DNA of 64,000 nt. It comes from Shigella phage sb1. This document shows, piece by piece, positions 54,059-55,230 of the stretch (positions are counted from its first letter, which is position 1; every line of letters begins with the position of its first letter). Location of the stretch: sequence record PQ666539. The stretch is one strand, 5' to 3'. The notes under the pieces are model-generated. The model searched no databases and was not told the origin of the DNA. It saw only the letters and a list, made by a program, of their open reading frames with translations. The position numbers and the translations under genes are program-made.

Positions 54059-55230
54059 GTATGTTGCAACGCCCAGGATATCCAAATCTCAGCGTTAAAT
54101 TATTTGATAGCTACGACGCTTGGAGTAATAATAGATTTGTTGAATTAGCTGCTACTATTACCACATTAACTATGCGGGATTCTCTTTATGGCCGAAATGA
54201 AGGAATGTTGCATTTTTATGATTCTAAAAATATCCATACAAAAATGGATGGAAATGAAATAATTCAGATTTCTGTAGCTAATGCAAACGATATTAATAAT
54301 GTTAAAACACGAATTTATGGATGCAAGCATTTTTCCGTGTCAGTAGATTCAAAGGGTGATAACATCATTGCTATTGAATTGGGAACTATTCATTCTATAG
54401 AAAATCTTAAATTTGGCAGACCGTTTTTCTCTGATGCAGGTGAATCTATAAAGGAAATGCTTGGTGTCATTTATCAGGATCGCACGTTATTAACTCCAGC
54501 AATAAATGCCATAAATGCTTATGTTCCTGATATTCCATGGACTAGCACATTTGAAAACTATTTGTCGTATGTCAGAGAAGTTGCTCTAGCTGTAGGAAGT
54601 GACAAATTTGTATTTGTGTGGCAAGACATCATGTGAGTTAACATGATGGACTATGATATGATGATAAATCAAGAACCGTATCCAATGATTGTCGGTGAGC
54701 CATCTTTAATAGGTCAATTCATCCAAGAATTAAAATATCCATTAGCATATGATTTCGTTTGTTTGACTAAATCGAATCCTCATAAACGCGACCCAATGAA
54801 AAACGCTACTATCTATGCGCATTCATTTTTAGATTCTTCATTGCCAATGATTACTACAGGAAAGGGCGAAAACTCTATTGTAGTGTCAAGGTCAGGTGCT
54901 TATTCTGAAATGACTTATAGGAATGGATATGAAGAATCTATTCGTCTTCAAACTATGGCACAATACGATGGCTATGCTAAATGTTCTACTGTCGGTAATT
55001 TTAACTTGACTCCTGGAGTTAAAATTATTTTTAATTATAGTAAAAAACAATTTAAAAAAGAATTTTACGTTGATTAAGTTATCCATGAATTATCCAATAA
55101 TAATTCAGTAACTCATCTATATATGTTCACTAATGCAACGAAACTGGAAACAATAGACCCAGTTAAGGTTAAAAATGAATTTAAATCTGATACTACCACT
55201 GAAGAAAGTAGTTCTTCCAATAAGCAATAA
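54055..55230 (+). CDS. 27: gp27 baseplate hub, interrupted by in-frame TGA 54634-54636 and TAA 55075-55077
   Basis: frame open through both stops to 55230 giving 392 codons as T4 gp27. Confidence 0.85.

Follow-up and report, generated by a model that had tools for sequence, protein, structure and literature searches.

Two stop codons within gene 27 of Shigella phage sb1 are probably errors of the record, part of a random G:C>T:A overlay on an ordinary Tequatrovirus segment

In the GenBank record of Shigella phage sb1, gene 27, which encodes the baseplate hub protein gp27, is interrupted by an in-frame TGA and an in-frame TAA, and this raises the question of whether the two codons belong to the phage or to its recorded sequence. 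The window analysed here, a stretch of 64,000 nucleotides from this record, is a Tequatrovirus segment with 96-97% identity to its nearest GenBank relatives. The record belongs to a batch of four lake-water phages from Kolkata, ADG1 (PQ666539, the source of the window), AKR2 (PQ666540, sb2), CRD3 (PQ666541, sb3) and TMC4 (PQ666542, sb4), and the phage formed plaques when it was isolated and propagated (PMC11993411). The batch was sequenced on a NovaSeq 6000 and assembled de novo with SKESA, from CTAB-extracted DNA of which 50 ng went into libraries prepared with a Twist enzymatic-fragmentation kit and PCR (PMC11993411).

Translated in frame, gene 27 has 392 codons with its stop (Table 1), and mechanical ORF calling divides it into three pieces, at 54055-54636 (193 amino acids), 54643-55077 (144 amino acids) and 55123-55230 (35 amino acids). 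A preliminary description of this DNA had claimed that the pieces are one gene 27 with a TGA and a TAA in frame, that its true 3' end lies at 55228-55230, 51 codons beyond the ORF that ends at 55077, and that the total of 392 codons equals that of T4 gp27. These claims are borne out: both codons are present on in-frame reading, the coordinates and peptide strings given are correct on translation, 55077 and 55230 are 153 nt, hence 51 codons, apart, and T4 gene 27 measures 1176 nt. The alignment to gp27 that had been proposed as a check is colinear from end to end, with residues 1-391 of the translation (X at both stops) matching residues 1-391 of PDB 1K28 chain D (E = 5.9e-258, 858 bits), and it places the stops at G194 and E341 of T4 gp27. 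Both Pfam domains of the protein are also present in order. PF09097 (Phage-tail_1) covers profile positions 1-189 of 196 on the first fragment (E = 1e-133), PF09096 (Phage-tail_2) covers positions 1-138 of 173 on the second (E = 2e-93), and the latter resumes on the third fragment at positions 140-173 (E = 1e-17). Because PF09096 runs from 138 to 140 across it, the TAA at 55075 cuts this domain in the middle of its profile.

Table 1. Features of gene 27, its neighbours and the tRNA cluster, in positions of the window
Feature	Position	Strand	Remarks
Gene 27 (baseplate hub protein gp27)	54055..55230	+	391 sense positions and terminal stop; 2 in-frame stops
In-frame TGA, gene 27	54634..54636	+	G>T at 54634; Gly194 replaced
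In-frame TAA, gene 27	55075..55077	+	G>T at 55075; Glu341 replaced
Terminal TAA, true gene 27 stop	55228..55230	+	Position as in T4 and all relatives
Four G>T missense changes, gene 27	54213, 54762, 54937, 55036	+	Q53H, W236C, A295S, D328Y, respectively
Gene 28 (baseplate hub distal subunit)	55175..55708	+	177 aa; from ORF list and T4 annotation
In-frame TAA, gene 51 (upstream of gene 27)	53609..53611	+	GAA>TAA, E102
In-frame TGA, gene 29 (downstream neighbour)	55897..55899	+	GGA>TGA, G65
Ten-tRNA cluster	9561-10388		Arg, Asn, Tyr, Met, Thr, Ser, Pro, Gly, Leu, Gln

The surroundings of the gene are equally regular. The conserved gene order 51-27-28-29 with its 27/28 overlap is present in the window, and, as the preliminary description had stated, the end of gene 27 overlaps the start of gene 28. 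The overlap takes up the final 56 nt of gene 27 and has its counterpart in T4, where the two genes occupy 5229-6404 and 6349-6882 of the stretch compared. The window copy therefore shares with T4 gp27 (NP_049803; PDB 1K28 chain D) its 391 amino acids, the synteny 26 / 51-27-28-29-48 and the 56-nt gene 28 overlap, but unlike T4 it carries TGA at codon 194, TAA at codon 341 and the substitutions Q53H, W236C, A295S and D328Y, all of them G>T. Full-length matches to gene 27 occur in 506 Tequatrovirus-type phage records, where the product is annotated as baseplate hub or gp27, and the best match, with 98.7% nucleotide identity, is Escherichia phage ECp13. In all seven relatives compared (ECp13, Ec_MI-02, ime09, pSs-1, Ec_YwIITB1, sb2 and T4), gene 27 is a single uninterrupted ORF of 1176 nt whose product ends in SSNKQ. 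A gp27 ending at 55077 in close relatives would have spoken against the proposed 3' end, and all relatives read through to the position of 55230. Codon 194 is GGA in six relatives and GGC in T4, and codon 341 is GAA in all seven.

The uninterrupted whole-protein ORF typical of gp27 is lacking in the window, where it is broken by the TGA at 54634 and the TAA at 55075. The gene is filed here as gp27 and the record as defective, with the broken ORF attributed to sequence error. In kind, gene 27 is a standard gp27 of the T4 type with no biological novelty, and the real phage almost certainly encodes an intact protein of 391 amino acids.

Seven differences in gene 27 are private to the window relative to the seven relatives, and six of them are G>T changes, namely the two stops and the four missense substitutions. 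D328Y (55036), missing from the seven relatives, is common only to the sibling record sb4. Near the TAA there are in addition two C>A missense changes, at 55047 (N331K) and 55058 (T335K), found among the seven relatives in sb2 only; these may be natural polymorphisms or shared artefacts.

Neither stop was recovered from other sequence collections. The 41-mer centred on the TGA at 54634 had zero matches by megablast among 50,697 phage records, and exact-pattern scanning for a 30-mer with the TGA gave no match in IMG/VR or in metagenome or genome contigs. Similarly, a 44-mer with the TAA at 55075 was absent from the 50,697 phage records by megablast, and a 32-mer with the TAA was absent from IMG/VR in an exact-pattern scan. 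As a positive control, the 41-mer with its G restored matched 477 of the same 50,697 records. Exact-product look-ups likewise found neither of the two truncated gp27 products on record as a called gene.

Gene 27 is by no means alone in being broken. When every annotated pSs-1 protein of the syntenic region was translated and compared with the window, 27 in-frame stops were found in approximately 24 genes. Stops are carried by denV, two ORFs of the e region, genes 3, 5, 6, 9, 10, 16, 18 and 23, as well as uvsW.1, uvsY, gene 51, gene 29, gene 48, alt and others, and two stops each by genes 17, 22 and 27. The positions range over the whole window: 3074, 6041, 6355, 7755, 9068, 12249, 13506, 17212, 18418, 25107, 26189, 33858, 34975, 35461, 36125, 42042, 42312, 43617, 51075, 52143, 53609, 54634, 55075, 55897, 57684, 59588 and 61451. 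All but two of the 27 are made by G:C>T:A changes, the exceptions being TAT>TAG at 9068 and TTA>TAA at 43617, in the major capsid gene. The source codons of the 25 G:C>T:A stops (GAA in 13 cases, GGA in four, TCA in three, TAC in two, and TCG, GAG and TGC in one each) have shares that track codon frequencies. Since genes 51 and 29 on either side and about 20 others are likewise broken, the gene 27 stops are to be regarded as an artefact and not as a property of the gene. This lack of specificity is what the earlier reading missed: one window-wide G:C>T:A process is behind all the broken genes.

One side observation concerns gene 12 (short tail fibre), which is frameshifted by a deletion of 1 nt in a run at about 28276 (AAAAACCC to AAAAACC), the sole frameshifting in-gene indel seen relative to pSs-1. 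A genome with these stops in essential genes and with the gene 12 frameshift could not form plaques.

The process is visible in the substitution spectrum of the window as a whole. Scored against three relatives (pSs-1, Ec_YwIITB1 and sb2), the window has 801 private differences. G:C>T:A changes make up 231 of them (125 G>T, 106 C>A), and the reverse type 48 (26 T>G, 22 A>C). By the same scoring the three relatives have 24, 45 and 56 G:C>T:A changes, roughly matched by the reverse class. The excess persists when five relatives are used (211 against 40). Of the 22,892 G/C sites, 1.0% are hit by the 231 changes, which are spread throughout the window at a density of 10-25 per 4-kb bin, with 17 of the 231 in intergenic DNA, where the rate is about 1.1% in comparison to about 1.0% in coding DNA. 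Against this background of approximately 1%, the two stops in gene 27 are unremarkable. The gene has 45 sites at which a G:C>T:A change gives a stop, so that 0.41-0.45 stops are expected and two or more have a probability of about 0.07; in a clean phage genome, two stops in gene 27 would be extraordinary.

Within the window, the G>T sites show no trinucleotide preference and no positional bias from -8 to +8, and this absence of sequence context disfavours k-mer-specific basecalling error. There is also no strand coherence between G>T and C>A changes, even within 100 nt (runs test, p = 0.27; distance-binned test). As the two orientations are uncorrelated, the amplification by PCR of a single damaged template strand is unsupported. 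Nanopore-type k-mer errors on glucosyl-hydroxymethylcytosine DNA were considered as well and rejected, given the lack of context and the sequencing of the batch on an Illumina instrument (PMC11993411).

Whether the changes ever passed through a living phage can be judged from their effects on proteins. In coding DNA, the G:C>T:A changes comprise 169 missense, 22 synonymous and 23 nonsense substitutions, in comparison to 169.3, 18.6 and 26.1 expected if they were placed at random on the ancestral coding sequence (chi-square p = 0.60), and their distribution over the three codon positions is 92/72/50 against an expected 94.6/72.7/46.7. Nonsense changes are therefore not depleted relative to random placement. 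The private transitions of the window, on the other hand, look like natural divergence, with 328 of 441 at third positions and 350 synonymous changes against 91 missense. Because the effect classes of the G:C>T:A changes equal the random expectation, selection never acted on them, and since a phage that forms plaques cannot carry nonsense codons at a neutral frequency in the genes for its capsid, terminase, sheath and baseplate, they must lie outside any replicating lineage. A comparison of this kind, between random placement and the effect classes of a single substitution type, provides a quick and general means of separating record error from biology.

An overlay of G:C>T:A substitutions is thus present throughout the window, and it never came under selection. 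The best explanation of the two gene 27 stops, to which we assign a probability of about 0.88, is that they are errors of the recorded sequence and part of this random overlay on an ordinary Tequatrovirus segment. Under this explanation, independent random G:C>T:A substitutions would have been introduced at about 1% of G/C positions, two of them turning GGA into TGA and GAA into TAA in gene 27, and we infer that the overlay arose during DNA preparation, library construction or assembly. Figures published for the batch point in the same direction. ADG1 has the lowest GC content, 35.16% compared with 35.49-35.52% in two cleaner siblings, and 285 annotated coding sequences, compared with 291 in TMC4 and 254-255 in the two cleaner genomes (PMC11993411). 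Turning 1% of G/C sites lowers the GC content by about 0.35 points, which equals the gap seen for ADG1, and its low GC content together with its high number of coding sequences fits a loss of about 1% of G/C positions combined with fragmented genes.

One candidate source of such an overlay is oxidative damage to guanine. In the 8-oxoguanine artefact the damaged G has a preference for sequence context, which is not found in the window, whereas the excess of G>T/C>A expected from this artefact is found (231 against 48 of the reverse type, with 24-56 in the relatives). Substitution of G>T/C>A through 8-oxoguanine mispairing is a documented artefact of library preparation (PMC3616734), and its classical form, for which acoustic shearing was identified as the source, appears at low allelic fractions and with a read-orientation bias (Costello et al. 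2013, PMC3616734). The window shares with this artefact the dominant substitution class and a non-biological origin, but unlike it the window has its changes in a de novo consensus that was obtained from an enzymatically fragmented library. Changes that have entered the consensus speak against the classical form with its low fractions, except in the case of very low effective depth. Because the errors sit in the consensus and fragmentation was enzymatic, an additional factor such as very low effective depth is needed, and a library of very low effective depth or complexity could allow errors of the 8-oxoguanine type to pass into the consensus.

The sibling records show that the window is one of several affected. 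In the syntenic 64 kb, in-frame stops number 38 in sb4 and only three in sb2, and in the five-relative comparison G:C>T:A changes outnumber the reverse class in both, by 131 to 53 in sb4 and by 43 to 13 in sb2. The error spectrum of sb4 is broader and includes A>T, T>A, C>T and G>A besides G>T. The window and these two siblings have in common the phage type, the set of ten tRNAs, the G:C>T:A excess and the splitting of essential genes by stops. In sb4, gp27 is also broken twice, but at other codons than in the window, L109 (TTG>TAG) and S351 (TCA>TAA), and is annotated as two pieces. Among the genes of sb4 that are annotated in two to four pieces are gp27, gp28, gp48, gp6, gp7 (four pieces), gp10, gp12, gp13, gp14, gp15 and gp16.

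Some of the G:C>T:A sites are shared between records. Two stops of the window, denV TGC>TGA (3072) and gp18 GAA>TAA (36125), are also present in sb2 and in no other of the 50,697 phage records, despite the otherwise diverged backgrounds of the window and sb2. Altogether the window shares 14 G:C>T:A sites exclusively with sb2 (two nonsense, nine missense) and nine exclusively with sb4, all of them missense and including 55036 in gene 27, where fewer than one shared site would be expected for independent errors. Tracts of identity with sb2 or sb4 around the shared sites are not unusually long, as they might be after read leakage or recombination in patches, and neither sequence context nor strand accounts for the sharing. 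Such sharing is not predicted by independent random read errors, and it is possible that it stems from leakage between libraries or from recurrent hot sites.

The sharing of sites is also the main point in favour of the strongest alternative, in which the substitutions are real, the DNA being that of oxidised or hypermutated and largely non-viable phage, for example after lethal G:C>T:A mutagenesis, and the gene 27 stops being true nonsense mutations, with the defective genomes maintained by complementation at high multiplicity. The spectrum is that of 8-oxoguanine mispairing, and sites including two nonsense changes recur in sb2 on a different haplotype background. However, effect classes at random expectation mean that no round of selection took place, yet the phage was isolated as a plaque-former (PMC11993411). 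Furthermore, stable complementation could not be achieved for 64 kb in which essential genes carry 27 stops and a frameshift, a consensus drawn from a population would not show lesions that are each placed at random, and the strand-coherent blocks expected from inheritance of lesions on one strand were not found. We therefore consider real mutation improbable. A specific form of it, in which real lesions, for example from oxidative hypermutation in a stored or stressed lysate of a T4-like phage, struck hot sites independently in the window, sb2 and sb4, is judged more improbable still. If it were true, reproducible hot sites would explain the denV and gp18 nonsense changes on different haplotype backgrounds.

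It is very unlikely that the stops are decoded, whether by codon reassignment, programmed readthrough or a suppressor tRNA of phage or host, even though the frame remains open and perfectly colinear with gp27 past each stop and many late genes carry stops. TAA, TGA and TAG are all used, and they replace Glu, Gly, Ser, Tyr, Cys and Leu; because three types of stop replace several amino acids, no single decoding rule restores the proteins. The gene 27 stops occur in none of the 506 relatives with the gene and none of the 477 with the restored 41-mer, and the frequency of stops is that which random G:C>T:A change predicts, with 169 unselected missense changes alongside. A tRNA scan of the 64-kb window found no suppressor tRNA, and the ten tRNAs of the cluster all have sense anticodons. 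With ordinary anticodons and six amino acids replaced, recoding and suppression are effectively excluded.

In recoded phages that use TAG or TGA in late genes, one stop stands for one amino acid, the arrangement recurs in relatives, and a suppressor tRNA is usually present. The window resembles recoded phages such as the crAss-like and Lak phages in having in-frame stops in structural genes with the frame kept, but unlike them it has no single stop rule, no recurrence in relatives and no suppressor tRNA. The classical amber mutants of T4 gene 27 each have a single selected TAG and are propagated on suppressor hosts. They too have a nonsense codon in a T4-type gene 27, but the window, unlike these mutants, combines TGA and TAA in this gene with 25 other stops, all three kinds of stop being represented.

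Finally, that gene 27 is a decaying pseudogene replaced by another hub protein is scarcely conceivable and effectively excluded: although two stops and four private missense changes fall in one gene, every gene in the window bears the same load, including the major capsid, terminase, sheath and portal-region genes, no second gp27-like gene is present in the window, and apart from the G>T changes the gene is 98-99% identical to functional relatives, with differences that are natural and mostly synonymous.

As errors of the record, the stops matter chiefly for data hygiene, and the value of the finding is that of a warning about record quality that extends to the sibling GenBank records. Gene-calling programs will break gp27 and some 20 further essential genes into fragments and thereby inflate gene counts, and the resulting truncated 'hypothetical' or duplicated 'baseplate' entries would seed protein databases, as is already visible in sb4. 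Every G>T/C>A difference in this record is suspect for comparative genomics, for safety calls in phage therapy and for work on codon usage.

A few further observations concern the tRNA genes and other records. Ten tRNA genes are reported for each genome of the batch, of which Arg (tct), Asn (gtt) and Tyr (gta) are shown (PMC11993411), and these three head the set of ten in the window. The composition of the cluster is the same in sb2, sb3 and sb4, and Ec_YwIITB1 has a tRNA-His in addition. In sb3 (PQ666541), three clustered stops lie in a single alt-like gene at 30552-31096. In Ec_YwIITB1 (PQ356294), gp23 and wac are disrupted, and gp23 and hoc show what looks like a frameshift or duplication.
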